IMG/VR virus record: IMGVR_UViG_3300007734_000751
Location: 8,556-72,555 of that record
DNA length: 64,000 nucleotides
From: a virus
Strand: one strand, 5' to 3'
The notes beneath the pieces are model-generated. The model made no database searches and had not been told where the DNA came from. It was given only the letters and a program-made list of their open reading frames with translations. The translations under genes and the position numbers were made by a program. Below, piece after piece: positions 5,758-62,760 of the stretch (within the stretch, counting starts at the first letter, position 1; each line of letters opens with the position of its first letter).

Positions 5758-5774
5758 TATTATAGTGAGGCATT

Positions 5775-13501: not shown

Positions 13502-13791
13502 ATGCTCTTCTTTTTTGAGTCTCTTTCTATCGCCCATCGGTCTACTTGCTCCCTATTCCACAGACACGCGTAATGCTGATTCATACGCTTCATGTCTTGT
13601 GCAAAGATTTTTTGAAGCGCCGACAACTTGCCCCCTGTTGTCTTCACTTCGATGAACCACGTCTCGCCATTTGGTAAACACACAACGCGATCACTCACGC
13701 CGCGATGCGATAACGAGTTGAATTTGTAGGCTTCGCCGTCCATAGCGCGGACGGTTTTAACCAAATATTGTTCAATGTCTGATTCTTTCAT
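13498..13791 (-). CDS. VRR-NUC nuclease
   Basis: ESDIE, GVSDR, FIEVK and LSALQ motifs; start placed at MKES by comparison with B. Confidence 0.85.
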   Translation of the reverse strand: MKESDIEQYLVKTVRAMDGEAYKFNSLSHRGVSDRVVCLPNGETWFIEVKTTGGKLSALQKIFAQDMKRMNQHYACLWNREQVDRWAIERDSKKKSI

Positions 13792-13853
13792 AAAAAAGTT
13801 ATTGCATAAACAAAAAAAGTTGTCTAGTGTGATTCGCATAAGGGAGATAATAA
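13792..13853. promoter_or_regulatory. Divergent promoter region of the replication module
   Basis: + strand TTGCAT-17-TAGTGT; - strand TAGACA -35-like box; equivalent in B at 50993-51057. Confidence 0.55.
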
Positions 13854-16522: not shown

Positions 16523-18411
16523 TCTGGCTTGATTTTGAAACGCGGAGCGAGTGCGATCTAAAATCGATGGGCGTATATAACTACGCCCGTCATCCCACAA
16601 CAGAAGTGTTGTGTATGTCTTACGCATACAACGACGATCCTGTGCAGACGTGGCGTCCAGGCGAGCCGTTCCCACGCTTGAACGGTCAGATCCGCGCGCA
16701 CAACGCAGCGTTTGAGCGTCTGATTTTCTGGCATGTGTTAGACAAACAGATCCCGCTTGAACAATTCTACTGCACCGCGTCACAAGCGAGAGCTAACTGT
16801 GCGCCAGGATCGCTCGAAGACGTTGCGCGTTTTGCTGGCACAAGCATGCGTAAAGATCACCGAGGCAACTACTTGGTGCGTAAGCTCTGCATCCCGCCGT
16901 TCAGCAACGACGTGCGTTTGCTGCAAGAGCTGGTAGAATATTGCGAACAAGACGTGCGTACGATGCGCGCGGCATCTAAGGCGATGCGGGAACTGACAGA
17001 TGAAGAGCTGGCAGATTATCATACTAATGAGCGGATCAATGATCGCGGCGTCTTGGTTGACGTATTTTTATGCCAAGCGGCGGTTCGATTTGCGGCTGAT
17101 GAATTACAGGAAATCGAACGAATCGTTCGTGAGGTTACGAATGGCGAGATTACATCAGTCCGAAGCCCTAAGATGCGACAATGGGTTCAAGATCGTGTCG
17201 GCCCCGCAGCCCTCAAGCTCATGGAGCGCGACGACAAGTATAGTATCGACAAGACGGCGCGCGCAAATTTATTGGCGATGGACGATCCTGAAGAAGTGCC
17301 GCCAGATGTTGCCGACGTTATACAGTGCGCTGACGATCTTTGGGCGTCTTCTGTAGCAAAGTTCAAGCGCCTTAACGATCTCGCCGGCGATGACCACAGA
17401 GTACGCGGCGCGTTCGTGTTCGCAGGTGGCAGCGCAACAGGGCGCGCGTCTAGCTACGGCGCGCAGGTTCATAATTTCACGCGCGTCTGCGCCGAAGAGC
17501 CAGAGGCTGTGCGTCATGCGATGGTGCGCGGACATAAGATCGTGCCTAAGTTCGGCAAGCGCGTCACTGATGTGCTCAAAGGTATGTTACGTCCTGCGAT
17601 GATTCCGGCCAAGGGTCATCAGTTCGTCGTCGCCGATTGGTCGTCCATAGAAGCCCGTGTTACTCCGTGGTTGTCCATGAATGGCGATGACAAGCTTGCG
17701 TTATTTAATTCTGGACAAGATGTGTATAAGTTCAACGCATCAAAAACCTTTGGTTGTGCAATAGAAGATGTGACAAAAGACCAACGCCAGGTTGGTAAAG
17801 TGCAAGAGCTTGCGTGTGGTTTTGCCGGCGGTGTCGGCGCGTTTGCTGCGATGGGTCGTGTATACGGAATTAACATGCCGGAAGACGAAGCCAGACGCAT
17901 GGTAAACGCCTGGAGACTCGCAAATAAATGGTCAGTGCCGTTCTGGAATGACATCGAGATGGCGTACACGCGGGCGCTAGGTCGTCAAGACGAAATATTT
18001 AGCGCGGGTAGAATTAAATACTTGTTTCGCGGTGAGCACCTTTGGTATGCTCTCCCTTCGGGTCGCGTTCTTTGTTATCCCTATGCGCGGTTTGAAGATG
18101 ACGGCAGTATAACTTACGCCAAAGCATCTTGGAAACCAGCCGCAGACGCAAAGGAATGGCCCCGTGCACGGCTATGGCGTGGGCTTGCATGTGAGAATGT
18201 AACCCAAGCAGTTGCAAATGATTTATTAAGGTACAGTCTACGAAATTTAAATAATGTTGTGCTTCATGTGCATGACGAAATAGTTGTCGAATCAGATGAG
18301 CCGGAAATAGCAAGGGAGGCTATGGTTCGTGTGATGACAACGCCGCCAGATTGGGCGGTTGGATTACCACTTGCCGTTGAGGCTAATATTATGGGGCGTT
18401 ATGGAAAATAG
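16519..18411 (+). CDS. Family A DNA polymerase (APSE-like)
   Basis: DFET and AHNAAFE exonuclease motifs; ADWSSIEAR; RQVGKVQELACGF; HVHDE. Confidence 0.93.
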   Translation: MIWLDFETRSECDLKSMGVYNYARHPTTEVLCMSYAYNDDPVQTWRPGEPFPRLNGQIRAHNAAFERLIFWHVLDKQIPLEQFYCTASQARANCAPGSLEDVARFAGTSMRKDHRGNYLVRKLCIPPFSNDVRLLQELVEYCEQDVRTMRAASKAMRELTDEELADYHTNERINDRGVLVDVFLCQAAVRFAADELQEIERIVREVTNGEITSVRSPKMRQWVQDRVGPAALKLMERDDKYSIDKTARANLLAMDDPEEVPPDVADVIQCADDLWASSVAKFKRLNDLAGDDHRVRGAFVFAGGSATGRASSYGAQVHNFTRVCAEEPEAVRHAMVRGHKIVPKFGKRVTDVLKGMLRPAMIPAKGHQFVVADWSSIEARVTPWLSMNGDDKLALFNSGQDVYKFNASKTFGCAIEDVTKDQRQVGKVQELACGFAGGVGAFAAMGRVYGINMPEDEARRMVNAWRLANKWSVPFWNDIEMAYTRALGRQDEIFSAGRIKYLFRGEHLWYALPSGRVLCYPYARFEDDGSITYAKASWKPAADAKEWPRARLWRGLACENVTQAVANDLLRYSLRNLNNVVLHVHDEIVVESDEPEIAREAMVRVMTTPPDWAVGLPLAVEANIMGRYGK

Positions 18412-20701
18412 AATCTTAGACTATGTCATTAGTCTTGCCGAAACCGGCGAAACGCCGCTTATCGTGCGTCAGATTCCACTTATGCGTGGTGGGGTTCATC
18501 AACAATATTTGGACGGATCTTATAAATATACTTGGCCCGCTTACTTGCCCGCGCATAAGCGCAAGAAAGGTGAAGCATGGTATATTAATACAGGTTCTTT
18601 TATTGTTGAGCGATTAAAAGACCGCATAAGCGCCGCAACAGCAAATTGCGAATACGTGCTCTTTATGATGTTGGACGATATCGGCACTAAGTCCAAGATA
18701 CCGCCGCTTAAGCCGACATGGATCGTTGAGACAAGCCCAGGCAATTTTCAGTGGTGTTACGCATTTAGAGAACAACCTACAATAGGAGAATATTGTGCAG
18801 CCATTACAGCTATCGCCGACGCTGGTTATACCGACAAGGGCGCTACTAATGCTGTGCGTAATTGCCGCTTGCCTGGTTCAGTTAATCTAAAGCCAGGACG
18901 CGATGCATTTACCTGCGTAGAAATAGAATTTAATCCTACTATAGACTACACGTTAAAAGAAATATGCGATGCGCTCGGCGTTGTGCCAGGTGAAGCGTCT
19001 ACGTCAATTTATAAATCAGTAACTGTAGAAGATACCGGCATTGATAACGTAATGACGTGGCTCAACGAGCAAGGGCTTGTTCTGTCGCGTCCTAATCCTG
19101 CGGGATGGATGGGCGTTGTATGTCCTAATCACGAAGAACATAGTGATGGACAGATTGAAGGCCGGTACAAGCCACTAGACAGATCTTATTGCTGTAAACA
19201 CGCGCATTGCGAGCACCTTAACAGCGAAGCGTTTCTTACATGGGTCGCCGACAATGGTGGCCCGCGCGAGCGCCAAGGTATTCGAGGCGATCTTATTGCA
19301 AATGAATTTAAAGCAATGTTTGAAGGCATCAAGCCTAACGCGCTCTATCCAGATGTTGCATCTGAGCGTGTGGCGCAGGTAGATCGAGAAGAGGCTGGGC
19401 GTGTTGAGCGCGGTAGCTGGTATGAGCGCTTTGCGTACATCGTAGATGACGACGCTTACTTTGACATGACAACGCGTAACGAGATCTCGCGCGGATCTTT
19501 CAATGCTATCTTTCGGCACATCAACTGCACATCAGTGCACAACCCCAAGCGCCGCATCGAGGCGTCTGTTTGTTTCGATGAGAACAGGCAAGAGCACAAA
19601 GCAAAATTATTGAAAGGCTTAACCTATGCGGCAGGTGAAAAGATCTTGGTGCATAAAGATGGCGAAGTCTATGGCAATAGATGGCGAGATGCGCGTCCCA
19701 CTGTCGCACGAACAACTAGTGATATATCTCGCTTTACTGCCCATTGTGAACGATTGGTGGGAGATGAGATTGAACGAAACCATTGCTACGACGTTATGGC
19801 GTTTAAGCTCCAACACCCAGAAGTAAAAGTAAATCACGCCGTGTTGCATGGCGGCGATGAAGGCTCCGGCAAAGATACGATGTGGGCACCATTCATTTGG
19901 TCTGTCTGTGGCCCGAACAATCACAACTGGGGTATCATAGACAACGAGAGCCTCTCTTCGCAGTGGGGCTATCAGCTAGAGAGCGAGATACTCATTCTTA
20001 ACGAGCTACGCGAGCCGGAGGCCCGTGAGCGCCGCGCGCTGGCTAACAAGCTCAAGCCCATTATTGCTGCGCCGCCTGACATGCTGCCGATCAACCGCAA
20101 GGGTCTGCATCCTTACGAGATGATCAACCGGCTGCTTGTGCTCGCGTTCACCAACGATCCGATTCCGATCTCTATACCGTCGCAAGACCGCCGCTGGTTC
20201 TGTCTGTGGTCTACTGCGCCGCGCATGTCGCCCGATGAGGCGCGTGAGATCTGGGCCTGGTATAAGGCCGGTGGCTTTGAGGCTATCGCCGCTTGGCTCT
20301 ATGCGCGCGATGTGAGCAAGTTCAACCCTACCGCTGCGCCGCCTATCACTGATTTCAAGCTTTCGCTTGTTGAGCATGGCATGTCTATGGCCGAGAGCTT
20401 TATCGTCGAGATGGCGCGCGGTCGCAAAGGCGATTTTGCTGCCGGCGTTATCGGTGGCCCGTTCCACGACATATGCTCGCGTATAAGCACCATGGCAGGC
20501 AATGGCGTTAAGGTGCCACAGGCAGCGCTTCTCCATGCGCTCAAGGAGGCCGGCTGGATAGATTGCGGGCGGCTGCACTCAGGTAAATATCAGACCAAGC
20601 GCCATGTGTTCTGCGCGCCTGAGATGGCTAGTCATAAAAATTCCGACCTTCGGAACATGTGCGAACCCAATCCAACCCCAACCCTACAGGTGGTCAAATG
20701 A
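18401..20701 (+). CDS. AEP (RepB-like) primase fused to DUF5906-type helicase
   Basis: MLDDIG, ETSPGNFQ, RLPGSVN; C/H zinc motif; Walker A GDEGSGKD; DRRWF. Confidence 0.85.
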   Translation: MENRILDYVISLAETGETPLIVRQIPLMRGGVHQQYLDGSYKYTWPAYLPAHKRKKGEAWYINTGSFIVERLKDRISAATANCEYVLFMMLDDIGTKSKIPPLKPTWIVETSPGNFQWCYAFREQPTIGEYCAAITAIADAGYTDKGATNAVRNCRLPGSVNLKPGRDAFTCVEIEFNPTIDYTLKEICDALGVVPGEASTSIYKSVTVEDTGIDNVMTWLNEQGLVLSRPNPAGWMGVVCPNHEEHSDGQIEGRYKPLDRSYCCKHAHCEHLNSEAFLTWVADNGGPRERQGIRGDLIANEFKAMFEGIKPNALYPDVASERVAQVDREEAGRVERGSWYERFAYIVDDDAYFDMTTRNEISRGSFNAIFRHINCTSVHNPKRRIEASVCFDENRQEHKAKLLKGLTYAAGEKILVHKDGEVYGNRWRDARPTVARTTSDISRFTAHCERLVGDEIERNHCYDVMAFKLQHPEVKVNHAVLHGGDEGSGKDTMWAPFIWSVCGPNNHNWGIIDNESLSSQWGYQLESEILILNELREPEARERRALANKLKPIIAAPPDMLPINRKGLHPYEMINRLLVLAFTNDPIPISIPSQDRRWFCLWSTAPRMSPDEAREIWAWYKAGGFEAIAAWLYARDVSKFNPTAAPPITDFKLSLVEHGMSMAESFIVEMARGRKGDFAAGVIGGPFHDICSRISTMAGNGVKVPQAALLHALKEAGWIDCGRLHSGKYQTKRHVFCAPEMASHKNSDLRNMCEPNPTPTLQVVK

Positions 20702-21736: not shown

Positions 21737-22015
21737 TCAATGATTGCTGTTACTAGGACAATAAACGCCGATTCTTCGTTTTTCATAGTTAATCCCGCTT
21801 ATGATGGTTGTATGGTCGCGTTTAAAGACGCGCGCTATTTGCGTATAAGTTTTATCGGTTTCTATATGCGCGCGATACATGGCCTTGCGGCGCACTGCGA
21901 TAACGCGCAGCGTGTTGTTATAAGAGATAAGGGTTTCATAGCTTAACCCCGCCGCTTTCGCCTCCTCTTGTATTATTTGCTTTATTGTTTTCATGTGGCC
22001 CCATATTAAAAGCAA
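21737..22015 (-). CDS. DnaA C-terminal (domain IV)-like HTH protein
   Basis: RRKAMY...IARVFKRDHTTIISG; homologue at 59174. Confidence 0.75.
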   Translation of the reverse strand: MLLIWGHMKTIKQIIQEEAKAAGLSYETLISYNNTLRVIAVRRKAMYRAHIETDKTYTQIARVFKRDHTTIISGINYEKRRIGVYCPSNSNH

Positions 22016-24689: not shown

Positions 24690-24954
24690 CTCTATTGTGA
24701 TCATAGTTACGAATTTTTGATCTTTTTTCGCGCGCGACGCGTTCGCGGAATTTTGGGTTGCTATTCGTTCTCTCGCGATAGCGAACGATAAACAACGACG
24801 CGTCGCAATCCTCCTCTAGGTAAAGATCGTCGCCTCGGCGATAGCTATATGAGCTAAAGTCCGCCGACGTTAATCCTAGAGCGAACAAATCGCGGGTGTT
24901 TACCTTCAACCATCCATGACCAGGGTCAGATATAAAATCAAATGTCGTACGCAT
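24682..24954 (-). CDS. Conserved phage protein with DPGHGWL / YLEEDCDA motifs
   Basis: Motif recognition; AAGGA RBS. Confidence 0.65.
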   Translation of the reverse strand: MRTTFDFISDPGHGWLKVNTRDLFALGLTSADFSSYSYRRGDDLYLEEDCDASLFIVRYRERTNSNPKFRERVAREKRSKIRNYDHNRGY

Positions 24955-24992
24955 GATATTTAATCCTTTTTAGTTAGAGATTAGAGCGGCGC

Positions 24993-25190
24993 TTATGCGC
25001 GCCGCTTTCTTTTCTTTGGTGCTACGTATTGCGCCGCTTGTTGCTCATAGTGCTCGACATGTCTTTGCAATTGCTCGACCGTCGTAAAGAAAGCGCAAAA
25101 AGTCATTATGTCTTGGTTGATATTTGCGGGATGATTTTGCGCCGATGTTAAACGCGCCATCAGTTCGGGGTTGCTTTTCCATATGGTCAT
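24993..25190 (-). CDS. First gene of the leftward early operon, hypothetical
   Basis: GAGGAG RBS directly downstream of promoter. Confidence 0.65.
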   Translation of the reverse strand: MTIWKSNPELMARLTSAQNHPANINQDIMTFCAFFTTVEQLQRHVEHYEQQAAQYVAPKKRKRRA

Positions 25191-25224
25191 TTTGGGTTGC
25201 TCCTCTTTGCGATTTGATGATCAT

Positions 25225-25285
25225 ATATTAGCAAAGATTTTTTGTTAGTCAATAGCTTTTTTGTTAAAAGCAAAGATTTTTTGTT
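25225..25285 (-). promoter_or_regulatory. Main leftward early promoter with repeated operator-like 16-mer
   Basis: TTGACT-16-TAATAT; GCAAAGATTTTTTGTT at 25231 and 25270. Confidence 0.65.
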
Positions 25286-25289
25286 TATT

Positions 25290-25675
25290 CTGGTCTTGAT
25301 GGTCTTGAATGGTTAAATATATTTTAAAAATGACCATGTTAAACGTGTTGAATTGGCGGGTTTTAGTGTTAAATGGTCATTATGGTCATTATTGTTTAAT
25401 TCTAAGAAAAATTTATATATGTATACAAATAAAGATAGTGTGTCACCATTCTTGGCGCGATTTTTTCCGCGTGACCATTTGACCATAATGACCAAAAGCC
25501 CCTCTTCTTTGCCGCGTTTTCTTCCCCCATGTTGACATATATGTTTACATTCATATACCAGTGTGACCTCCGACTAGTAAACGCGTGACCATAATGACCA
25601 TGAGTTATGTCGACATTTGAATGACAACTTAGTTTATGTAAACATAGTTGACAATCATTTGACTAAACGACCATG
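25290..25675. repeat. Putative replication origin A: TGACCAT/ATGGTCA iterons around an AT-rich core
   Basis: ATGGTCATT x2 (25373, 25382); AT-rich 25390-25437; TGACCA at 25472, 25480, 25489, 25586, 25595 and others. Confidence 0.65.
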
Positions 25676-25770
25676 CGCGCCAATTCGACGGCATGCGACG
25701 CGACGGGGGGACTGGGCCTTGCGTGGTCTGGGAATATCTACGCAGGGATTACACAAACTTTTTTTTATTT
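25627..25770. promoter_or_regulatory. Conserved block upstream of terS (candidate pac site / late promoter)
   Basis: ACTTAGTTTATGTAAAC, G-run-CTGGGCC, GGGAATATCTACGCAGGG and CACAAACTTTTTT all shared with 62786-62880. Confidence 0.5.
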
Positions 25771-25794
25771 TTAAAATATGGTAATAAAGATTCT

Positions 25795-26319
25795 ATGTTT
25801 GAAAGCTTGCCATATGAGCCTCGAAAAATAGAGGCCACAGAAAAGAATCTCGAACTAATCTACGAGGCCGCGCGCAAAGGACTTAAAGGTGACGCGTTGG
25901 CGCTAGCTGCCGGCATGATGCCGGTAGAGTATCGCCGGCTTGTGCAGTTCGACCCTATCGCTGAGTATGCGGAAACCAAAGGCCGCGCAGACGGCGAGGC
26001 TGAGATGGCGAACGTGCTCCGCACAGCCGCGTTGAACGGCGACACTAAGGCGGCGCTTGAGATGCTCAAGCACGCGCATGGCTGGGTCGCCAAGCAGGCC
26101 GTCAGCGTAGAAGTGAACCAGACCATATCTATTACGGCGGCGCTTCAGGAGGCGCAGCAACGAGTCATCGAAGGGCAAATCATAGATGCAAACGACTATT
26201 TACAGTCCGGAGGAAGAACAGCGTTTGATGGCGACGCTGTGGAATCCGGCGCTGAAGGACGACCCGCTGGCCTTCGTGAGATTAGCCTTCCCGTGGAAGA
26301 AGCCGAATACGCCCCTTGA
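25795..26319 (+). CDS. terS: Terminase small subunit
   Basis: Immediately upstream of terL; helical; GDTKAA..LKH..W motif; homologue at 62907. Confidence 0.7.
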   Translation: MFESLPYEPRKIEATEKNLELIYEAARKGLKGDALALAAGMMPVEYRRLVQFDPIAEYAETKGRADGEAEMANVLRTAALNGDTKAALEMLKHAHGWVAKQAVSVEVNQTISITAALQEAQQRVIEGQIIDANDYLQSGGRTAFDGDAVESGAEGRPAGLREISLPVEEAEYAP

Positions 26320-27712
26320 GCACTTCGAAGGCCCACGCAAATGGCAGCGCGAGGTGCTCGTTGAACTGCGCGATCACATCCACGCAAACAACGGACGAAT
26401 AGACTTCGAGACGCTGCGGCTGGCGGTCAGTTCAGGACGCGGTATCGGTAAGTCTGCGCTAGTCAGTTGGCTGACAATTTGGATGCTGACCACGCGGATC
26501 GGCTCGACGACCATCGTGTCGGCTAACTCGGAAGCGCAGCTCCGTAGCGTCACCTGGGCCGAGATAACAAAGTGGTTGAGCATGGCGATTCACAGCCACT
26601 GGTTCGAGGTATCCGCAACGCGGGTGCTACCGGCTAAGTGGATCGCGGAGTTGGTCGAACGTGATCTGAAAATGGGAACGCGCTACTGGGGCGTAGAAGG
26701 GCGGTTGTGGAGTGCGGAGAATCCTGACGCATACGCTGGTGTGCACAACTTCGCGGGTGTCATGCTGGTATTCGATGAGGCGAGCGGAATTGATGATTCT
26801 ATCTGGTCAGTTGCAGCGGGCTTTTTTACGGAAAATACCCCTAATCGCTTTTGGTTGTGCTTCAGCAACCCCCGTCGTAACTCTGGTTACTTTTATGAGT
26901 GTTTTAACTCCAAGCGCGACTTCTGGCGAAATAAGATTGTCGATGCCCGATCTGTCGAAGGGACGGATAAAGCCGTCTACCAGCAAATCATTGACGAGTA
27001 TGGGCCAGACTCCAGCGCGGCGCATGTCGAAGTCTACGGTCAGTTCCCCAACGCATCAGACGACCAGTTCATCGGAAACGCGCTGGTTGACGAGGCAATG
27101 GAACGTCCCGCTGTCGCCGACCAGTCCGCCCCCATCGTGGTCGGAGTGGATCCAGCACGCTTTGGGGCCGACGCCACCGTTATAGCCATAAGGCAGGGCA
27201 GAGACATCCTAGCCATCAAGCGCTACCGAGGCGACGACACGATGGAGGTTGTCGGTCGTGTCATCGATGTCATCGAAGAGTTCAAGCCAGCCTTGGTCGT
27301 CATCGACGAAGGCGGCTTGGGTGCGGGTGTAGTGGATCGGTTGAAGGAGCAGCGCTACAAGGTGCGCGGCGTGAACTTCGGCAATAAGAGCACGAAGCCC
27401 ATGATGTATGGGAACAAGCGCGCTGAGATGTGGGGCGCGATGAAGGACTGGCTGAAGGACGCGAGCATACCGAAGGATCGCTACTTAAAATCTGACCTCA
27501 TCGGGCCAATGATGAAGCCGGACTCGAAAGGCACCATATTCCTAGAGTCTAAGAAGGACATGAAAAGCAGAGGACTGGCGTCTCCAGACGCGGCGGACGC
27601 TATCGCGATAACCTTCGCATTTCCCGTAGCTAGACGCGAACAGCGAGTAGACAACACACGTCGCCTCGCGTATGGTGGCAACGCAGCCTCTTCAGGATGG
27701 ATGGCAAGCTAA
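26186..27712 (+). CDS. terL: Terminase large subunit
   Basis: Walker A SGRGIGKS; Walker B VFDEAS; SNP; nuclease GVDPARFG.D and SPDAADA. Confidence 0.95.
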   Translation: MQTTIYSPEEEQRLMATLWNPALKDDPLAFVRLAFPWKKPNTPLEHFEGPRKWQREVLVELRDHIHANNGRIDFETLRLAVSSGRGIGKSALVSWLTIWMLTTRIGSTTIVSANSEAQLRSVTWAEITKWLSMAIHSHWFEVSATRVLPAKWIAELVERDLKMGTRYWGVEGRLWSAENPDAYAGVHNFAGVMLVFDEASGIDDSIWSVAAGFFTENTPNRFWLCFSNPRRNSGYFYECFNSKRDFWRNKIVDARSVEGTDKAVYQQIIDEYGPDSSAAHVEVYGQFPNASDDQFIGNALVDEAMERPAVADQSAPIVVGVDPARFGADATVIAIRQGRDILAIKRYRGDDTMEVVGRVIDVIEEFKPALVVIDEGGLGAGVVDRLKEQRYKVRGVNFGNKSTKPMMYGNKRAEMWGAMKDWLKDASIPKDRYLKSDLIGPMMKPDSKGTIFLESKKDMKSRGLASPDAADAIAITFAFPVARREQRVDNTRRLAYGGNAASSGWMAS

Positions 27713-28823: not shown

Positions 28824-30942
28824 TGACGTTGAAGGAGCCGGAAAAGTCTCCGATACCCCAGACCATGATCGTCTGGCTACTATGCGGCATCGCTTTACCG
28901 TTGCCTCTGCCGCTTATAGCGATTCACGGGAAGACGAATTAGATGACCTTCGTTTTATGGCCGGAAGTCCTGACAACAGTTGGCAGTGGCCAGCCGACGT
29001 CTTGGCGACCAGAGGCGCGGTGCAGGGCCAGACGATCAACGCGCGGCCATGCCTGACGATTAACAAGCTGCCACAGCATGTTAGGCTGGTAACAAATGAA
29101 CAACGACAGAACCGCCCCTCCGGCAAAGTCATCCCAGCGGACGATAAAGCCGACGTCGCGGTCGCAGAAGTCTTTCAAGGTATTGTCAGACACATCGAAT
29201 ATTTGTCGGACGCGGACGTTGCTTATGATACCGCCTGCGACAATCAAGTTACCTACGGCGAAGGTTATATCCGAATCCTTACGGAATATTGCCGCGAAGA
29301 CTCGTTTGACCAAGACCTGAAGATCGGTCGCGTTCGCAACAGCTTCAGCGTCTATATGGATCCGATGATTCACGATCCATGCGGATCAGACGCCGAGTGG
29401 TGCTTCATAACCGAAGACATTCCGAAAGAAGAGTATGAGCGTCTTTATCCTGACGCGCTGCCGATTTCTGTGATGATGTCGCAGGGCGTTGGCGATCAGT
29501 CACTTAGCATGTGGATGAGCCAGGAAACCGTCCGTATTGCTGAGTATTTTTATATCGAACATCAGAAGCGCAAGCTGAACCTGTATCCAGACAATATGAC
29601 GGCGTTCGATGGCACGCCGCTGGATAAGCAGCTCAAGGCGATGTTTGGCAAGCCGCTGAAATCTCGCACAAGCGAGCATCGTCAGGTGAAATGGCTAAAG
29701 ACCAACGGCTTCGAGGTTCTTGAAGAGCGCGATTGGGCGGGTAAATGGATTCCTGTCATCCGCGTGGTTGGCAATGAGTTTGAGGTAGACGGGCAGTTAT
29801 ACATCAGCGGTTTGGTGCGAAACGCCAAAGACGCGCAGCGCATGTATAACTACTGGGTCAGCCAGGAAGCAGAGATGCTGGCGCTGGCTCCGAAAGCACC
29901 GTTTATCGGATATGGGGGTCAGTTTGAAGGATACGAAACAAACTGGAAAACGGCCAATACGAACAACTGGCCCTACCTCGAAGTCAACCCCGACGTCACC
30001 GATGGCGCTGGAAATCCTCTGCCATTACCTGAACGCGCGCAGCCACCTATGGCGCAAACCGGCCTTATCCAGGCCAAAATGGGCGCTGGGGAAGATATCA
30101 AATCCACCACGGGTCAATACGACAGCTCCATTGGTGCGACCAGTAACGAGAGGACGGGTCGTGCGATTTTGGCTCGGCAAAACCAAGGCGATACCTCCAC
30201 ATACCACTATGTGGACAATCTCGCCCGTGCGGTCAGATATACGACAAGACAACTGGTAGATCTGATCCCTAAGATCTACGACACGGAACGCGTGGCACGC
30301 ATCGTCGGACTCGACGGCGAAGTGGGTATGGTGAAAATCAACCCAAATCAGCCTGAACCAGTGCGCGTCATCAAGGATCCGATCACGGGTCTGGACATTG
30401 AAAAGATCTACAACCCATCGGTCGGCACATACGACGTGGTAGTGACGACAGGCCCAAGCTACGCGACCAAGCGCCAAGAGGCGATGGAAGCGATGCAGAT
30501 GATCTTGCAGACCAACCCGCAGCTCTGGGGTGTGGCAGGCGACCTGTTCATCAAGAACATGGACTGGCCTGGAGCGCAGGAAATGGCGGCTCGGTTCGCC
30601 AAGACGCTCGATCCGAAGGTTCTGGATAATACGGATGAGTCGCCAGAAGCGCAGATGATGCGCGCTCAGATGAACGACATGGCGAACCAGATGGAACAGA
30701 CTGCGGCGTTGGTTCAGCAACTGCAACAGTCTTACGATATGCAGAAACTGGCGATTGACGAGCAAAATACGCAGATTAAGGCGTATGACGCAGAGACAAA
30801 ACGTCTTCAGGCCATGCAAAGCGGGCTGTCGCCTGAACAGATCCAAGACATCGTAATGGGAACGGTCGCAGCGGCGATGGATACGGGCGATATTGTCCCG
30901 CGTAACACGCCGATGCAACCACAACTGCCAGGATTAGAATAA
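28813..30942 (+). CDS. Portal protein, P22 gp1-like
   Basis: 709 aa; RPCLTINKL, AKDAQRMYNY and GPSYATKRQE motifs; Gln-rich barrel tail. Confidence 0.92.
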   Translation: MAASDVEGAGKVSDTPDHDRLATMRHRFTVASAAYSDSREDELDDLRFMAGSPDNSWQWPADVLATRGAVQGQTINARPCLTINKLPQHVRLVTNEQRQNRPSGKVIPADDKADVAVAEVFQGIVRHIEYLSDADVAYDTACDNQVTYGEGYIRILTEYCREDSFDQDLKIGRVRNSFSVYMDPMIHDPCGSDAEWCFITEDIPKEEYERLYPDALPISVMMSQGVGDQSLSMWMSQETVRIAEYFYIEHQKRKLNLYPDNMTAFDGTPLDKQLKAMFGKPLKSRTSEHRQVKWLKTNGFEVLEERDWAGKWIPVIRVVGNEFEVDGQLYISGLVRNAKDAQRMYNYWVSQEAEMLALAPKAPFIGYGGQFEGYETNWKTANTNNWPYLEVNPDVTDGAGNPLPLPERAQPPMAQTGLIQAKMGAGEDIKSTTGQYDSSIGATSNERTGRAILARQNQGDTSTYHYVDNLARAVRYTTRQLVDLIPKIYDTERVARIVGLDGEVGMVKINPNQPEPVRVIKDPITGLDIEKIYNPSVGTYDVVVTTGPSYATKRQEAMEAMQMILQTNPQLWGVAGDLFIKNMDWPGAQEMAARFAKTLDPKVLDNTDESPEAQMMRAQMNDMANQMEQTAALVQQLQQSYDMQKLAIDEQNTQIKAYDAETKRLQAMQSGLSPEQIQDIVMGTVAAAMDTGDIVPRNTPMQPQLPGLE

Positions 30943-34163: not shown

Positions 34164-35332
34164 TGTTATATGAACGGCATTTTGAGTGTAAAACCAGAGG
34201 GTTAGTTCAAGGGCCAACTAGTTTAGATGGCTTTCCTGGCGCTGTAACGTCCATAAAAACACCAAAACAATTTCGTTTTATAAATAAACGCGAATTTTTT
34301 GTTGAGGATTTTTTTAAAGATTTGCGTGAAGAAAATCAGCCTTGGATTAGAACATATAAAATTGTTATTCGTTCACATGAAAGCAAAGAAGAGATATGGG
34401 TTCGCCCTTTTGCGGATAAGTCCGAATGTTTTCTAATTTGGGCGCGTTTGATTGGTATGGATTTAGAACGCCTACCGACCGATAAACCGTTTGTCTGTCC
34501 GACTATTTGGATAGATGGTGAGATAGAATATTTGTTTGCTACAGTTGACCAATTTACTACTGTTGGGACTTTTACTTGGTCGCCAACAGGTAATGTTGTC
34601 GCTACAGATTATCTTATAGTTGCTGGCGGGGCTTCTGGCGGCGGCGCACCTACAGGTAGTTATGGCGGCGCGGGTGGGGGAGGCGGCGGCGAACTTAAAA
34701 CAACGACAAACTATACGTTTACTACTAAAACCGTTGTAGTTGGAAATTATGGCGCTGCTTCGGGAGCGGGACAGAATAATGGTAATCCTGGGTATGATAG
34801 CTCTTTTGATGGAATAACATCAAAAGGCGGTGGCTATGGTTCAAAAGCATATGGCACTGGCGGCGCTGCTTCAGCTAGTGGCGGAACTGCGGCTTGTGGA
34901 GGCGGCGGCTCAAATGGTAGTGGCGGTACTGGGTCTAAATATAGCGGTGGTACAGGAGCGGATGGCGGCGGCGGCGGGGCTGGAGATAGCCAAAATGGTG
35001 TAAGCGGAAGCGGGGCAAATGGCGGTAACGGCGGAAACGGCACTTCTAGTTCTTTAACGGGATCTTCAGTTGCTTATTCTGGCGGCGGCGGCGGCGGCGC
35101 ATATCAATCTGGCACCGTTGGCGCGGCAGGAAACGCGGCGGCTACTGCTGGTGCGGCAAATCTTGCTAGTAGTTCTAACGCTACTGCAAATAGAGGTGGC
35201 GGGTCTGGCGGCGGCGGCGGAACTTTTACATCTGGTACAACTGGATCGGGTAACGGCGGCACAGGATTTGTGGCGTTAAGCTATACACCTATTACGCTTG
35301 TAGTTCGCAATATGCCAATGTTAGGAATGTAG
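34163..35332 (+). CDS. Glycine-rich domain protein (fibre-associated)
   Basis: YLIVAGG..GG, YSGGGGG and G.GG.G.V motifs; TAATG coupling. Confidence 0.7.
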   Translation: MLYERHFECKTRGLVQGPTSLDGFPGAVTSIKTPKQFRFINKREFFVEDFFKDLREENQPWIRTYKIVIRSHESKEEIWVRPFADKSECFLIWARLIGMDLERLPTDKPFVCPTIWIDGEIEYLFATVDQFTTVGTFTWSPTGNVVATDYLIVAGGASGGGAPTGSYGGAGGGGGGELKTTTNYTFTTKTVVVGNYGAASGAGQNNGNPGYDSSFDGITSKGGGYGSKAYGTGGAASASGGTAACGGGGSNGSGGTGSKYSGGTGADGGGGGAGDSQNGVSGSGANGGNGGNGTSSSLTGSSVAYSGGGGGGAYQSGTVGAAGNAAATAGAANLASSSNATANRGGGSGGGGGTFTSGTTGSGNGGTGFVALSYTPITLVVRNMPMLGM

Positions 35333-35334
35333 AA

Positions 35335-35763
35335 ATGCAAGTTGGATATAAGCTTATTGAAATTGCAACAGGCAATGTTATTCAATCTTGGGGCGGTAAT
35401 TGGGGTCAGCTTCCTAATCCCCCAAGCCCAATAGAACTTCCTACTGGCGAGCAAGTATGCGGCGCTCAGACAGGAGACGAGTTTAACGGATATAGATTAG
35501 ATCCGTGGAATATGGATAGTCCTCCAGTTCCTCAACAAGCCCCTATGTGGGCTGTTAGAACAGTTCTTCAAAATGACAATCTGTTTGACCAAGCTCAAGC
35601 AGCCATTACGGCGTCAACAGATAACGCGCTTAAGAATGTCTGGGAATACGGTAATTTTGCTGACAGAAATTCCAAAGCTATTGCATCTTTAGCCGTAACA
35701 CTTAATTTGACAGACGCACAAGTAGATCAAATGTTTTTCGACGCAAACAGTCTGGAAGTCTGA
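35335..35763 (+). CDS. Putative fibre assembly chaperone
   Basis: WEY...R and LTDAQVDQMF C-terminal motif. Confidence 0.55.
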   Translation: MQVGYKLIEIATGNVIQSWGGNWGQLPNPPSPIELPTGEQVCGAQTGDEFNGYRLDPWNMDSPPVPQQAPMWAVRTVLQNDNLFDQAQAAITASTDNALKNVWEYGNFADRNSKAIASLAVTLNLTDAQVDQMFFDANSLEV

Positions 35764-54016: not shown

Positions 54017-55935
54017 TCTGGTTAGACTTTGAAACGCGCAGCGAGTGCGATCTGAAGGTGGCGGGCGTATATAACTACGCTCGTCATCCTTCGACGCAGA
54101 TACTGTGCATGGGCTTTGCGTTTAATGATGAGAGCGTCAACGTCACAACGAACGTGTCGGAGATGCGTAAGATATTTGCTAACGCTCCAGACCATCAGAT
54201 CTGCGCGCACAACGCAGCCTTTGAGCGGCTAATCATAGAGCATGTGCTTGGTATGCCGATGCCGATAGATCGTTTCTACTGCACGTCTGCACAGGCCCGC
54301 GCTAACTGTATGCCAGGATCGTTAGAAGATGTCGGGCGCTTCATGGGCGCGTCAATGCGTAAAGACAACAAAGGCGGCGCGCTTGTTAAGAAGCTCTGCA
54401 CACCGCCGTTCAAAGGCACTGACGAAGACATGAAAGGTTTGATTAGATATTGCGCGCAGGACGTTCGCGCTATGCGAGACTTCAGCCAACGCATTGAACC
54501 GTTGAGCGAAGAACAGCTAACTGATTATCACGTCAACGAGCGCATCAACGACAGAGGCGTGCGCGTAGATGTTAAACTGTGCAAGGCCGCGCTGCTTTAT
54601 TCTGATGCAGAGATTGTTGATATTCAAAAGCGCGTGGTTGACATAACCAAAGGCGCGATCACATCTGTCCGCAGTCCTAAGATGCGCGAGTGGGTGTTAG
54701 CGCGGCTAGGCCCAGACGCGCGGGCGCTGGCGGTCAAGAACGACAAGCCGTCTATCGACAAGAGCGTACGCGCCGCGCTGTTGTCAATGGGCGACCCTGA
54801 CCAAGTGCCGCCCGATGTCCTTGAGGTCATACAATGCGCCGATGATATGTGGGCGTCCTCGGTCGCTAAGTTCAAGCGGCTTGAACAGCTCGCCGGAGAG
54901 GACGACCGTGTGCGCGGCGCGTTTGTGTTCGCTGGCGGCAGCGCCACGGGTAGAGCGTCATCATACGGCGCACAAGTGCATAACTTCACGCGCAAGTGTG
55001 CAGACAAGCCCGACTCGGTGCGTCAAGATATGGTGCGGCGTAAACCGATTGTGCCTATACATGGTAAGCGTGTCACTGACGTGCTCAAGAGTATGTTACG
55101 CCCCGCGTTAATTCCGGCCACTAATAAAAAGTTTGTAGTAGCAGACTGGTCGTCCATAGAAGCCCGTATAACTCCGTGGTTGTCTAATAATGGTGAAGCT
55201 AAGTTAAAACTATTTGAGACAGGCGCTGATGTTTATAAAGTAAACGCGGCTAAAACATTTAATATATCAGTAGATAAAGTAACAAAAGATCAGCGACAGA
55301 TTGGTAAAGTTCAAGAGCTTGCGTGTGGCTTTGCTGGCGGTATCGGCGCGTTTGCCGCGATGGGGCGCATCTACGGCGTTGATTTGTCTGATACTGAAGC
55401 GAATCAAATGGTTGTCGGTTGGCGCAAGGCTAATGATTGGGCGGCTGACTTTTGGTCTGCATTACAAGAAGCCTACACAAGCGCCATGCGAAATGACGAC
55501 ACGGAGTTTGAAGCAGGCCGCGTAAAATACTTGCGACAGAATAGACACCTTTGGTATATTCTCCCTTCGGGTCGCAGGCTGTGCTATCCGTATGCCGATT
55601 TTAATAGCGCCAAAGAAGAGGTAACATACGCTAAAGCGTCATTTAAGCCTAGCGCCGACGCTAAACAATGGCCGCGTGCAAGACTATGGAAAGGATTAGC
55701 TTGTGAAAATATTACACAAGCTACCGCCGCAGATATTTTACGCCATGCTTTACGCTGCCTTGATGATGAAGGTTTTGATACTGTTCTACACGTTCACGAT
55801 GAAATTGTTATTGAAACAGATAATCCAGACAAAGCACAAAAAGCATTAGAACGAATAATGAAAACGCCGCCGTCATGGGCGGAAGGTTTACCATTAGACA
55901 TAGAAGTTTCCGTTATGGGGCGGTATGGCAAATGA
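54013..55935 (+). CDS. Family A DNA polymerase
   Basis: Same catalytic motifs as 16519. Confidence 0.93.
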   Translation: MIWLDFETRSECDLKVAGVYNYARHPSTQILCMGFAFNDESVNVTTNVSEMRKIFANAPDHQICAHNAAFERLIIEHVLGMPMPIDRFYCTSAQARANCMPGSLEDVGRFMGASMRKDNKGGALVKKLCTPPFKGTDEDMKGLIRYCAQDVRAMRDFSQRIEPLSEEQLTDYHVNERINDRGVRVDVKLCKAALLYSDAEIVDIQKRVVDITKGAITSVRSPKMREWVLARLGPDARALAVKNDKPSIDKSVRAALLSMGDPDQVPPDVLEVIQCADDMWASSVAKFKRLEQLAGEDDRVRGAFVFAGGSATGRASSYGAQVHNFTRKCADKPDSVRQDMVRRKPIVPIHGKRVTDVLKSMLRPALIPATNKKFVVADWSSIEARITPWLSNNGEAKLKLFETGADVYKVNAAKTFNISVDKVTKDQRQIGKVQELACGFAGGIGAFAAMGRIYGVDLSDTEANQMVVGWRKANDWAADFWSALQEAYTSAMRNDDTEFEAGRVKYLRQNRHLWYILPSGRRLCYPYADFNSAKEEVTYAKASFKPSADAKQWPRARLWKGLACENITQATAADILRHALRCLDDEGFDTVLHVHDEIVIETDNPDKAQKALERIMKTPPSWAEGLPLDIEVSVMGRYGK

Positions 55936-58322
55936 ATTTCGTTGACTTTCTTAAAAGCCTTTCATTCGATGGTGAGACAGCGCTTTTTACTAAACAGATA
56001 TTAAAGAAACGTAACGGTGAGGTGCATTACTTCCCCGACGGAACGCCGGAGTCTACTTACCCTGCGTTTTTGCCGGAGCAAGTGCGTATCAAGGACGGCG
56101 ACTCTTGGTATGGTAACACGGGCTGCTACATCAAAGAGCGTTTCGTTGACGGTAAAGTAAGCGCATCAGCCGCTAACTGCGACTACGTTCTTGTTATGAT
56201 GTTAGACGACATCGGATCATTGAAAGATTATGGTCAGTTAATCATACCGCCGCTTGAACCGACATGGAAGATGGAGACGTCTGAAGGGTCTATTCAGTGG
56301 GGATATGCGTTTGATCCAGACAATCAACCAACAACAGGTGAATTTAGCGCAGCGATCAACGCCATAGCTGATGCGCTTTACACTGACAAAGGCGCAGTCA
56401 ATCCAGTTCGTAACTTTCGTCTGCCAGGTAGCGTTAATTTAAAACGCGGGCGTAACAACTTTGCAGCTAAATTACTTGAGTTTCATCCAGACCGTTTGTT
56501 CACGCTTGAACAGATTTGCACCGCACTTAACGTAACGCCAGGTGATGCGAACACAACGCGCAGCCAACATATCCGCATCAAAGATACAGGCAATGATAAC
56601 ATCACCGCTTGGTTGAACGATAATGATTATATTCTGTCTAGCATTAACGGCGAAGGCTGGCGCAGCGTTGTTTGTCCTAACCATGAAGAACACAGTGAAG
56701 GTATTGAAGGACGCTATCACGCTGCAACGCGATCTTATTTTTGTTTTCACGGTCATTGCAGAGACAAGATCGACAGCAATTATTTTTTGAAATGGGTTGC
56801 TGACAATGGTGGGCCAACTGAAAAGCAAGGGCTGCGTAGCGAGCTTATATCAGAGCTTGGTCAAAAGATGCGCGCGAACAGCGAGCCTAACGATATATTC
56901 CCAGATGATGCAAAGGCGCGTCAAGCTGATGCAGATCGGCGCACTGAGGTTATAGAAGATCGCGCGGGTTGGTTTGATGAGTGGGCTTATGTTGTAACTG
57001 ATGATGGTTATTTTAATAAGGTGACGCGGCGTGAGGTGTCGCGGCCTTCGTTTAACGCCATCTACCGTGGGACTAAGTGCATCTCAGTTCACACGGGGCG
57101 CAAAGTTGAGGCAGCTACTTTTTATGATGAAAACAGACAAGCCAAAGGAGCAGAGATTGTCGATGAGATCACTTACGCATCGGGTGAGGACGCGACGATT
57201 ACGCGCGATGGTCTTGTCTATGGCAATAAATGGCTTGAAGCGCGGCCAGCTATCGTTCCGTCAACCGCGAGTATAGACCGCTGGCACAAGCATTGTGAGC
57301 TGCTTGTCCCTGAGACTGGCGAGCGTGAACACATTTTTGATATGATGGCGTTCAAGCTGCAAAAACCTAAAGTCAAAATAAACCATGCGGTCTTACACGG
57401 TGGCGATGAAGGCGCTGGTAAGGATCTTATGTGGGCACCGTTTATCTGGAGTATATGCGGCCCGTTCCATCGTAACTATGGCTTGATAAAGAACGAGCTA
57501 ATCAACAATCAGTGGGGCTATCTTTTAGAAAGCGAGATCGTTGTCCTTAACGAGTTGAAAGAAGGCGAGGCCGTTGAACGCCGTGCATTGGCTAACCAAC
57601 TCAAACCGCTTATCGCTGCGCCGCCGGATCTGATCTCGATCAATCGTAAAGGTATGCACCCGTATTACATGCTCAACCGTTTATTCGTTCTAGCGTTTAC
57701 GAATCATCGGCTACCGATCACGCTTGAGTCTACCGACCGTCGCTGGTTCTGCGTCTGGTCTACTGCGCCGCGTATGCACCCACGCGATGGCGCGGCTATG
57801 GCTGCATGGTATCAGCGTGAGGGCTTCAACGCTATCGCTCAGTGGTTACACGACCGCGACGTGTCTAAGTTCAATCCAGGCATGATGCCGCCGCTGACCG
57901 ATTATAAAGCATCGCTGATCGAAAGCGGCATGTCGCTGGCTGAGAGTTACATCTTAGACGCGATAAGAAACAAAGAGCCGCCATTTGATCGTGAAGTTAT
58001 TGGCAGTCCGTTCCATAAGATCTGTCAAGAGTTAGCCGTATCAACTAAAGCGCCAGCTACTAAAATGAAGATACCGCCAGCGGCGCTGTTCCAAGCGCTT
58101 AAGGAAGCGGGCTGGATTGACTGTGGGTCTGTGGCAACGCCGGAGCATCAAACTAAAAAGCACATATTCTGCGCGCCGCATATGTTGGTCGAGCACAAGA
58201 AACCTAAACTTAGGGATATGTTAGCAAACACGGTGAAGTTCGATGAGAAGCCTAAAGATGATGAGAAGCCTAAAGACGATAATGTTGTGCCTATCACTAA
58301 GTCTAAGCCTAAGTGGGTGTGA
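55932..58322 (+). CDS. AEP primase-DUF5906 helicase
   Basis: MLDDIG, RLPGSVN, GDEGAGKD, DRRWF; start at ATGA overlap. Confidence 0.85.
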   Translation: MNFVDFLKSLSFDGETALFTKQILKKRNGEVHYFPDGTPESTYPAFLPEQVRIKDGDSWYGNTGCYIKERFVDGKVSASAANCDYVLVMMLDDIGSLKDYGQLIIPPLEPTWKMETSEGSIQWGYAFDPDNQPTTGEFSAAINAIADALYTDKGAVNPVRNFRLPGSVNLKRGRNNFAAKLLEFHPDRLFTLEQICTALNVTPGDANTTRSQHIRIKDTGNDNITAWLNDNDYILSSINGEGWRSVVCPNHEEHSEGIEGRYHAATRSYFCFHGHCRDKIDSNYFLKWVADNGGPTEKQGLRSELISELGQKMRANSEPNDIFPDDAKARQADADRRTEVIEDRAGWFDEWAYVVTDDGYFNKVTRREVSRPSFNAIYRGTKCISVHTGRKVEAATFYDENRQAKGAEIVDEITYASGEDATITRDGLVYGNKWLEARPAIVPSTASIDRWHKHCELLVPETGEREHIFDMMAFKLQKPKVKINHAVLHGGDEGAGKDLMWAPFIWSICGPFHRNYGLIKNELINNQWGYLLESEIVVLNELKEGEAVERRALANQLKPLIAAPPDLISINRKGMHPYYMLNRLFVLAFTNHRLPITLESTDRRWFCVWSTAPRMHPRDGAAMAAWYQREGFNAIAQWLHDRDVSKFNPGMMPPLTDYKASLIESGMSLAESYILDAIRNKEPPFDREVIGSPFHKICQELAVSTKAPATKMKIPPAALFQALKEAGWIDCGSVATPEHQTKKHIFCAPHMLVEHKKPKLRDMLANTVKFDEKPKDDEKPKDDNVVPITKSKPKWV

Positions 58323-62309: not shown

Positions 62310-62760
62310 TTTAGGGTAAATGAAAAGTGAAGGAAATTGCCCTAAACGGGTAGTGATAGGGCGATTTAGGGCGGTTTGACGGGGCGGCGTATCCTTTTGT
62401 AATTGCTAGTTAATTGTCTGTTTTAGGGTAATTAGGGTAATCAATAAAAGTTTATCTTAAATCTTATATAATAGTCTATATAATTGGTATATTAGTAATT
62501 GTATTACTATAGGCCGTGCCGCCGAAAACGATTGCCCTAATTACCCTAAAATCGCCAATGTGCAGGCGTTATCAATGCGTTATGTGCGGTTGTATAAACC
62601 GCCCTAACAATACCCAATAAGGTAATTGTTGCGATATTTTAGGGTAATTGGGCGTTTAGCAGCCCTAGCCGCCCCGCCGATGCAAACTTGCAAACTTCCC
62701 CAGGGAATTCCCCGTGATGCGGTTGCGACTCAAAAAGCAATTGCCCTAATTGCCCTAAAC
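62310..62760. repeat. Putative replication origin B: TTAGGGYAA/TTRCCCTAA iterons around an AT-rich core
   Basis: TTAGGGTAA at 62311, 62423, 62432, 62639; AT-rich 62441-62510; TTRCCCTAA at 62337, 62532, 62541, 62741, 62750. Confidence 0.7.

Follow-up and report, generated by a model that had tools for sequence, protein, structure and literature searches.

Probable iteron replication origins of uncultured freshwater phages diversify together with a predicted winged helix of their primase-helicase

We analysed a 64,000-nucleotide stretch of viral DNA (the window; bases 8556-72555 of the 72,555-bp IMG/VR record IMGVR_UViG_3300007734_000751) that carries two diverged phage genome copies, A and B, each with a non-coding region in which short repeats point inward at an AT-rich core just before a small-terminase-like gene (terS-like). 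Comparative sequence evidence supports well the reading of this region as an iteron replication origin, most likely loaded by the phage's own superfamily 3 (SF3) primase-helicase, which would load itself as does Rep of the Staphylococcus aureus pathogenicity islands (SaPIs). Such a system is of a known kind that has diversified unusually far in this phage family, and the new and useful part is the covariation of the repeat word with the wing of a predicted winged helix at the C-terminus of the primase-helicase.

Comparing the record with itself by blastn reveals two copies of ~37.4 kb end to end, window 1-26867 matching 37645-64000 at 66-87% identity. The first 127 nt of the record recur exactly at record position 38597 (window 30042-30168), its last 181 nt duplicate record 35242-35422 (window 26687-26867) without a mismatch, and no further exact repeat of 127 nt or more was found in the record, which looks like an assembly-graph path through two co-occurring variants. 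On the strength of these exact end repeats, we read A (window 1-26867) and B (window 30042-64000) not as one molecule but as siblings, probably two phages of one sample with separate genomes rather than one concatemer. In the interval from primase gene to origin-like region, the self-comparison found no similarity between A and B except one 77-bp stretch of 77.5% identity, so that the pairing of primase and origin is secure within each variant.

The origin-like region is the largest non-coding stretch (~0.5 kb) and lies between a leftward accessory operon and the terS-like gene. Its repeats, with a unit of 8-9 bp, occupy 25183-25675 in A and 62311-62758 in B, and the word is ATGACCAT in A and TTRCCCTAA in B. 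The first-pass annotation of this DNA had described repeat pairs of 9-bp period facing inward around an AT-rich core, scattered extra copies, a word switched between the variants and a primase-helicase encoded 4-5 kb away; all of these were recovered in both copies, as follows.

25373..25389, plus strand: left inner iteron pair of A, ATGGTCAT twice (starts 25373, 25382), 9-bp period, pointing at the core
25390..25470, no strand: AT-rich core of A, presumed DNA unwinding element, 83 bp between the arms, AT 0.71
25471..25495, plus strand: right inner iteron triplet of A, GTGACCAT/TTGACCAT/ATGACCAA (starts 25471, 25479, 25488), 8-9-bp period, inverted relative to the left pair
25585..25601, plus strand: distal right iteron pair of A, GTGACCAT and ATGACCAT (starts 25585, 25594), from the repeat search
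Starts 25183, 25217, 25299, 25330, 25667 and 25778: single extra iterons of A, from the repeat search
62423..62440, plus strand: left inner iteron pair of B, TTAGGGTAA twice (starts 62423, 62432), 9-bp period
62441..62531, no strand: AT-rich core of B, 89 bp, AT 0.72
62532..62549, plus strand: right inner iteron pair of B, TTGCCCTAA and TTACCCTAA (starts 62532, 62541), inverted relative to the left pair
62741..62758, plus strand: distal right iteron pair of B, TTGCCCTAA twice (starts 62741, 62750), from the repeat search
About 62311, 62337, 62366, 62600 and 62639: single extra iterons of B, from the repeat search

In A, the GC content falls as low as 0.167 at 25380-25439, and the arms 25373-25388 and 25586-25601 form a 16-nt inverted repeat of 100% complementarity. 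All five exact window copies of ATGGTCAT lie within 25183-25601 (420 bp), with 1.38 expected across the window and five reached in 3 of 100 shuffles; allowing one mismatch, 13 copies are found in the 750 bp upstream of terS. For B, 9 of the 11 window-wide matches to TTAGGGTAA with at most one mismatch fall in 62311-62758 (<450 bp), and it is this clustering that stands out, the count itself being unremarkable (11 against 9.15 expected, reached by 28 of 100 shuffles). From the primase stop codon to the core the distance is 4.7 kb in A and 4.1 kb in B, with 8-12 small open reading frames (ORFs) in between, meaning that the origin does not adjoin the gene of its putative initiator.

The same layout recurs throughout an uncultured family of podovirus-like phages from fresh water that encode a PolA of their own, for which IMG/VR was scanned twice, with a TerL and with a primase alignment; each scan returned at least 580 relatives (at least 590 seen), and 80 loci per scan were kept. 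An automatic detector of this layout, which required tandem pairs (8-11 bp apart) to face tandem pairs of inverted orientation over a distance of 60-150 bp, was applied to the 115 related loci that have 650 bp or more upstream of terS. It called 85 of them, against 2 of 115 dinucleotide shuffles and 8 of 103 terL coding controls; with at least 10 copies required, it called 74 loci, no shuffle and one terL control. Among the loci called, the AT-rich core measures ~80-145 bp, and this one layout is filled with at least 20 iteron words: ATGACCAT, AAGACCAA, TTRCCCTAA, ATGACCCAAA, ATGACCTA, ATGACTAT, ATGACGAT, ATGGCGAT, ATTGTCA, TTGCCAAT, TTGCCCAT, TTGCCCAAA, TTGTCCACA, GGMCCACA, CTGCCGAAA, TGACCGAAA, TGCCTAG, AGCCTAAA, CGCCTAAC, GCATAAAC, ACAATCGG and ACTACCAA. 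Registered by eye, most of them agree in a G and a C at a distance of two bases (about W-T-G-N-C), the variation being on the 3' side. The sole full-length GenBank relative of the primase is encoded by MW202483.1 (L244), an uncultured 'Podoviridae sp.' of identical gene order, in which the origin is unannotated; its iterons, TTGGTAGT/ACTACCAA, surround an AT-rich core (7625-7828), and its primase has the wing MCFAPELSTKRH.

The candidate readers of these words are the two primase-helicases and their C-terminal domains:

18359..20701, plus strand: primase-helicase of A, 780 aa from the first TTG (true start uncertain), with RepB-type primase N-terminus, DUF5906/SF3 core and predicted C-terminal winged-helix domain
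20276..20698, plus strand: C-terminal domain of the A protein, residues 640-780, winged helix as predicted with AlphaFold2
20570..20614, plus strand: wing segment of A, residues 738-752, RLHSGKYQTKRHVFC, a hypervariable loop that tracks the iteron word
55875..58322, plus strand: primase-helicase of B, 815 aa, 54% identical to A and collinear with it
58128-58172, plus strand: wing segment of B, residues 752-766, SVATPEHQTKKHIFC, from the wing alignment

Both proteins contain an SF3 core of the D5/DUF5906 type (PF19263 at 39.9 bits in A and 39.1 bits in B, above the cut-off of 27.6) and match PHROG 1156 'DNA primase' (E 1e-19 and 2e-20); A also matches PF16793 (RepB_primase, 29.4 bits), and Pfam found no Toprim or DnaG domain in either. 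The first-pass annotation had counted the primases among the most diverged homologues of the two variants, which is true of their 54% identity, although not uniquely so, as a 209-aa early protein is only 44% identical. In L012, the primase frame (445-2796) contains one internal stop codon, which may be a sequencing error, a pseudogene or recoding.

An AlphaFold2 model built on a 64-sequence alignment of residues 640-780 (mean predicted local distance difference test score 81.2) has a strand-helix-helix-strand-strand order after a long helix, with a strand at 58-60, helices at 63-74 and 82-92 and strands at 95-100 and 109-113. The fold is predicted to be a winged helix and the variable segment its wing hairpin; the near-invariant helix occupies the position of the recognition helix in the model. 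The top rows of VIA-align over the winged-helix part are largely winged-helix domains (Z 4-6.6), and the C-terminal region of the NrS-1 primase-helicase (6k9c) scores Z 4.1. Across the family, a near-invariant ALLHALKEAGW.D.G is followed by ~10 residues that differ between iteron classes and are alike within a class. In a search of 5.8 billion proteins, this domain was present in at least 928, nearly all of them primases of ~766 aa.

We compared protein segments with iterons in 87 loci that have both a primase C-terminus and an origin, 75 of them with clear iterons and 64 left after dereplication. Over the 2016 pairs from these 64 loci, 93 of which have an identical iteron, those with the same iteron are best told apart from those with different iterons by the wing (A residues 738-752), with an area under the curve of 0.952, compared with 0.889-0.913 for primase/helicase core segments and 0.798 for TerS. 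In partial Mantel tests of segment against iteron similarity, controlling for primase (helicase) core identity, the wing (r=0.234, p=0.001) and the helix-2 region (r=0.182, p=0.001) are associated with the iteron over all 64 loci and TerS is not (r=0.037, p=0.17); nor are the 209-aa protein (r=-0.11, p=0.97; 27 loci), the DUF2800 nuclease (r=0.10, p=0.10; 21 loci) or PolA (r=-0.07, p=0.94; 42 loci), the wing itself giving r=0.19-0.27 (p=0.002-0.006) on the subsets of these last three. Unrelated iterons were found despite up to 97-98% identity of the 209-aa protein, the nuclease or PolA, and despite 88-95% identity of TerS. The suggestion that the word follows the primase-helicase through its C-terminal domain, and neither TerS nor a helix-turn-helix (HTH) protein, is in line with these results, which place the covariation in the wing loop of the predicted winged helix.

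Individual wings can be matched with words. Wing LKSREFD[ST]KKH goes with TTGTCCACA, [VI]AS.D[FY].SKK with ATGACCCA, LASAEY.TKKH with TTGCCAAT, LHSGKYQTKRH with [TA]GACCA (A, L007 and L008, whose common wing is RLHSGKYQTKRH, with a GACCA core) and V[AG]T.E.QTKKH with TTRCCCTAA, of CCCTAA core (B, L006 and L010). On the primase-core tree, KSR wing and CCACA iteron form a perfect two-by-two table (both in 10 loci, neither in 54), with four changes each and concordance in 3 of 3 independent pairs; the four other wing-word pairs have 4-13 concordant presences, 56-58 concordant absences and 1-4 exceptions.

The small ORFs next to the origin are mosaic with respect to the word: one iteron class occurs with different ORF families, one ORF family with many classes, and several ORF families of the interval are 96-100% identical in pairs of different class. 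An ORF consisting of DnaA domain IV only (DnaA_C) was likewise ruled out as the iteron reader, being present in 37 of 87 loci and absent from 50, keeping its DHTT signature across classes, and having the same C-terminal half in L032, L035 and L036, which use three words; it is absent from all 10 CCACA-class loci. ORF cluster 12, at about -3900, had been another candidate for this ORF and is a coiled-coil protein.

Because the primase C-terminus lies nearer to the origin than the rest of the gene, co-inheritance alone could mimic coupling. The DNA of L104 and L116 bears on this point (positions from the L104 primase start). The two are ~90% identical over positions 1-1750, fall to 53-71% over the last ~100 primase codons, and return to 92-95% directly past the stop codon; up to position 5254 they remain mostly 67-100% identical, save for a 0.8-kb insertion of small coiled-coil ORFs and short dips. 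At 5295-6030, the origin, they are unalignable with identity at random level, and from 220 bp upstream of terS onwards they are again 92-98% identical, TerS being 95% identical. In the L116 lineage, replacement affected the wing codons and the origin as two distinct patches, and the ~3 kb that separate them are conserved, which argues against simple linkage as the source of the wing-iteron coupling. Among 19 pairs with at least 60% of the primase-to-origin interval aligned, a switch is seen only in the L116 contrasts and in L025 vs L045.

Given the parallels with SaPIs, P4 alpha and ORF904 of pRN1, we interpret the region as the origin and propose that the primase-helicase combines the roles of initiator, helicase and primase. 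In the mechanism that we propose, the C-terminal winged helix would bind the 8-9-bp iterons with at least two subunits per side, facing inward, the AT-rich core between them would melt, and the helicase would load itself, probably as two opposed hexamers, whereupon the primase domain would prime and the phage PolA extend. The near-invariant helix ALLHALKEAGW may read the conserved part of the iteron, about W-T-G-N-C, and the hypervariable wing loop its variable 3' part; if the wing reads that part, wing and word change together, and each sibling holds a matched initiator-origin pair.

Several observations weigh against this reading. A near-invariant 'recognition' helix combined with wing-borne specificity would be unusual. 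The partial correlation of the wing is modest (0.23), and the k-mer similarity on which iterons were compared is noisy, as in L092 vs L100, because unrelated tandem repeats mask shared iterons. The wing-word map is many-to-one and has exceptions, with off-diagonal loci among the 64 in the ATGACCCA class (2+2), GCCTAA (3), TTGCCA (1) and TGCCCAT (2), and the sign tests had at most four informative pairs each, with medians of p=0.25 (three) and p=1 (two), so that 0.05 was unreachable. The strict layout test was failed by 30 of the 115 loci, 12 of the 87 had no clear iteron, and GC skew, a check proposed earlier, follows gene direction only, without an origin signal. The clean two-patch event is a single one (L116), that of L025 vs L045 being weaker. 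As for the fold, Foldseek against the PDB returned nothing at E<=0.001 and the best fold match is modest (Z 6.6); neither the origin-binding domain of P4 alpha (1ka8) nor SaPI Rep was among the Foldseek and VIA-align rows listed, an absence compatible with a relation to 1ka8; nothing better than noise (E>0.6) came up when the C-terminal domain was searched as a profile against PDB sequences, and Pfam found nothing in the C-terminal domains of A and B even at E<=10.

Other functions of the repeats have to be considered. They could form a pac- or cos-type packaging site bound by the small terminase, like cosB R sites or pac boxes, since a position directly upstream of terS is typical of such sites and the extra repeat pairs lie 130-210 bp from the terS start. 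This is highly improbable, given that TerS does not covary with the word, that nearly identical TerS proteins accompany unrelated repeats, and that in L104 and L116 the flank and terS are conserved around a repeat region that cannot be aligned; a GTTTACAT-type motif and a 75-nt element beside terS, which are conserved like TerS, are better candidates for a packaging signal. We also regard it as very unlikely that the repeats are operators of a regulator of the divergent operons, be it a small accessory HTH protein or the DnaA-domain-IV ORF, whose mosaic or patchy distribution, constant DHTT and single C-terminal half with three words are at odds with such a role. The location of the region between divergent operons, the promoter-like matches inside it and a DnaA_C-only ORF 3.4 kb away would fit an operator, and DnaA domain IV does read 9-bp boxes; the ORF is missing, however, from every one of the 10 loci whose iterons resemble DnaA boxes.

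The covariation as such shows a cognate pair and not the role of that pair, and the C-terminal domain might bind the repeats for copy control, handcuffing, autoregulation or helicase parking, with initiation elsewhere through recombination or an R-loop. Scattered extra copies overlap the leftward promoter region and the start codon at 25183-25190, and in phage P4 a further cluster of repeats bound by alpha (crr) does not serve as the start site. We consider this explanation unlikely, as inward pairs flanking an AT-rich core of fixed length correspond to the loading geometry of SF3 helicases described for SaPIs (PMC9371898), and as the window holds no second cluster, all exact ATGGTCAT copies and 9 of 11 TTAGGGTAA-like matches being located here.

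Around the putative origins, A and B share a common gene context. Each unit encodes a DUF2800/PD-(D/E)XK nuclease, the 209-aa protein (PHROG 9528), PolA and the RepB-primase/DUF5906 (SF3) helicase of 780-815 aa, followed by a leftward block of small ORFs that includes the DnaA_C-only ORF, and then by the origin-like region; downstream of it come the terS-like ORF, terL, portal and structural genes, and each unit also has an SNF2 helicase and a VRR-NUC nuclease.

12033-13325, minus strand: SNF2/DEAD helicase, a large leftward ORF past the structural genes, from the family search
13498-13860, minus strand: VRR-NUC nuclease next to the SNF2/DEAD helicase, from the family search
21737..22015, minus strand: DnaA_C-only HTH ORF of A, 92 aa (PF08299, E 1.3e-11, 44.8 bits)
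24993..25190, minus strand: first ORF of the leftward accessory operon, 65 aa, bordering the origin region, from the ORF list, without Pfam or PHROG match
25795..26319, plus strand: terS-like ORF of A, 174 aa, named by position only, directly upstream of and overlapping terL
26186-27712: terL, with weak Terminase_6 matches
59174-59500, minus strand: DnaA_C-only ORF of B, 108 aa, DnaA domain IV (PF08299)

The ORF at 12033-13325 had been considered as an integrase, which its identity as an SNF2 helicase rules out, and no integrase was seen in the 64-kb window. Neither the terS-like ORFs nor the small ORFs bordering the origin matched a family in Pfam or PHROGs. The DnaA-domain-IV ORFs, of which MW202483.1 carries an annotated homologue, might bind DnaA boxes of the host. 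A DnaA-box origin was rejected for A and B, as their words differ from TTATCCACA and only the TT[GA]TCCACA class resembles that box. Iterons of this class (L122, L134, L140, L146, L151 and L153) are a DnaA box or one base off, with exact TTATCCACA copies in L122, L134 and L146, and CCACA-class phage origins may mimic host DnaA sites or compete for them.

Further elements beside the origin are not iterons:

25230..25286, plus strand: direct repeats AGCAAAGATTTTTTGTT, two exact and one variant, 19-20 bp apart, in variant A only, from the repeat search
25529-25550 and 25633-25654, no strand: GTTTACAT/ATGTAAAC-type motifs of A, from the repeat search
25696..25772, plus strand: conserved ~75-nt element upstream of terS in A, GGGGG..CTGGGCC..GGGAATATCTAYRCAGGG..T-run, outside the variable origin
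62759-62810: GTTTACAT/ATGTAAAC-type motifs of B, from the repeat search
62806-62887: the ~75-nt element in B (L244 8408-8480 in MW202483.1)

The AGCAAAGATTTTTTGTT repeats overlap a leftward sigma-70-like match next to the first leftward ORF. The early promoter named in the first-pass annotation corresponds there to a consensus match only (TTGACT-16-TAATAT, 25252 to 25225, minus strand). The GTTTACAT/ATGTAAAC-type repeat lies between origin and terS, is common to A, B and loci of other iteron classes, and occurs 2-4 times in A and B, 18 times in L005 and ~15 times in MW202483.1 (L244 8000-8410); it is possibly a packaging or late-gene signal. By self-blastn, 25702-25772 of the ~75-nt element matches 62812-62887 at 78%. 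No Rfam family matched this element, and Rfam at permissive E-values over 24800-26000 gave chance-level rows only. In MW202483.1, the origin/GTTTACAT region is separated from the terS-like gene by an inserted ORF that is annotated as homing endonuclease (L244 8519-8965).

The search of 5.8 billion proteins with the C-terminal domain also returned four restriction-like proteins (P0002, P0121, P0122 and P0123), which are built in the order Mrr-type nuclease, ResIII/DEAD helicase with Helicase_C, two HA domains and 3-4 tandem winged helices that are 37-54% identical to the primase domain. Mrr_cat_2 scored at or near the cut-off in P0122 and P0123, the Mrr-type nuclease was undetected in P0121, and for the N-terminal 620 residues PADLOC ranks a type IIG restriction enzyme model first. 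Wings differ among the copies of one protein: P0123 has FLKSREYVSKKH, RIASSDYMTKKH and RLKAREFDNKKH, the last of which shares 13 of 15 positions with the wing of L153, a phage with TTGTCCACA iterons. P0002 (L163 1-2676) is located at the end of a contig of a bacterial metagenome-assembled genome, 3.6 kb from rpsL-rpsG-fusA-tuf.

Furthermore, the winged-helix domain was detected in 323 proteins when 1.84 billion representatives were searched by profile. Of ten that we inspected, seven are HNH endonucleases, each with a single copy at the C-terminus and with wings that vary; this HNH-winged-helix group of 320-440 aa comprises P0294, P0304, P0306, P0309, P0312, P0338 and P0284 (also P0391 and P0404), with one cluster member named McrA by its source and one found on 48 contigs of up to 102 kb. 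Viral contigs of IMG/VR and GenBank phages yielded neither this kind nor the array of winged helices on a superfamily 2 (SF2) helicase: a scan of IMG/VR viral contigs with the HNH-winged-helix alignment returned primase C-termini only (80 of 80 kept loci match residues ~234-394 only), GenBank phages held no full-length HNH-winged-helix protein, and a metagenome scan with the SF2-array alignment gave 80 helicase-family loci (L164-L243), none with the winged helix.

The nucleases with copied winged helices may cut phage origins. It is conceivable, as a tentative extension by analogy with Odn and the Vibrio elements (PLEs) that resemble phage-inducible chromosomal islands, that wing and iteron diversify because the origin is the target of initiator-mimicking nucleases, a joint switch serving as escape. 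Private replication that resists co-infecting relatives had been proposed as the purpose of switching, and this idea has a precedent in begomoviruses (PMC2974675); nuclease-driven diversification seems at least as plausible. If origin-targeting nucleases were confirmed, the family would offer a natural, readable wing-to-DNA code of more than 20 specificities, along with immunity directed at origins, or a weapon between phages, of a new class, and conflict-driven origin specificity, so far described mainly for PLE and phage ICP1 (PMC8263062), would be seen at scale. Overall, our reading would provide a function for the longest non-coding region in a large family of uncultured freshwater phages with at least 590 relatives, and for a C-terminal domain that is found, without annotation, in at least 928 proteins. 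The at least 20 matched wing-iteron pairs on a conserved scaffold form a data set for the study of DNA reading by wings and for orthogonal replicons.

Among known systems, P4 alpha, whose repeats are read in both orientations, had been named as the parallel in the first-pass annotation. Its single polypeptide unites a DnaG-type primase with an SF3 helicase and, at the C-terminus, a winged-helix domain that binds the origin (PMC2777425). The likeness holds for the order of primase, SF3 core and predicted C-terminal DNA-binding domain within a single protein; the primase part is not a homologue, being RepB_primase (PF16793) in A, with neither DnaG nor Toprim in A or B. ORF904 of pRN1 and NrS-1 join a prim-pol or a primase of the archaeo-eukaryotic type to an SF3 helicase and a C-terminal winged helix, and for ORF904 no cognate site had been found (PMC2777425); in our phages the site is suggested by covariation, and the fold similarity to the NrS-1 region is weak.

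The SF3 helicases of SaPIs, sometimes fused to a primase, load themselves, and their C-terminal winged helix binds iterons, of which at least two stand in opposite directions on each side of an AT-rich centre, cognate to their initiator and differing between elements (PMC9371898). The arrangement in A, B and 85 of 115 relatives is the same, with at least two iterons on each side of the core in opposite orientation. By contrast, the SaPI origin lies directly downstream of rep, a typical and not a mechanistic feature, and the putative origin described here is 4.1-4.7 kb away and beside terS; iterons have 5-6 nt in SaPIs and 8-9 bp here; and these are podovirus-like phages with their own PolA, unlike the SaPI satellites. 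Neither the PDB profile search nor Foldseek or VIA-align gave a sequence match or significant fold match to SaPI Rep.

Begomovirus siblings differ in the iteron word and a few Rep residues, a change of one residue and one base leads to replication incompatibility, and recombination swaps the Rep determinant jointly with the iterons, as a single 200-360-bp exchange moves both (PMC2974675). There, Rep is an HUH rolling-circle nuclease whose N-terminal determinant adjoins the origin, unlike the partners described here, which are ~4.5 kb apart and changed as two separate patches in L116. In Vibrio, RepA-origin modules are exchanged between related PLEs. The ICP1 nuclease Odn has a copy of the domain with which the PLE initiator binds its origin; it cleaves the origins of these elements and apparently selects for exchanged replicons (PMC8263062). 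The HNH nucleases and Mrr-SF2 helicases with copies of the primase winged helix resemble this arrangement, although the DNA-binding fold and the nuclease families are others, the putative target is a phage and the holder is, at least once (L163), a bacterial chromosome.

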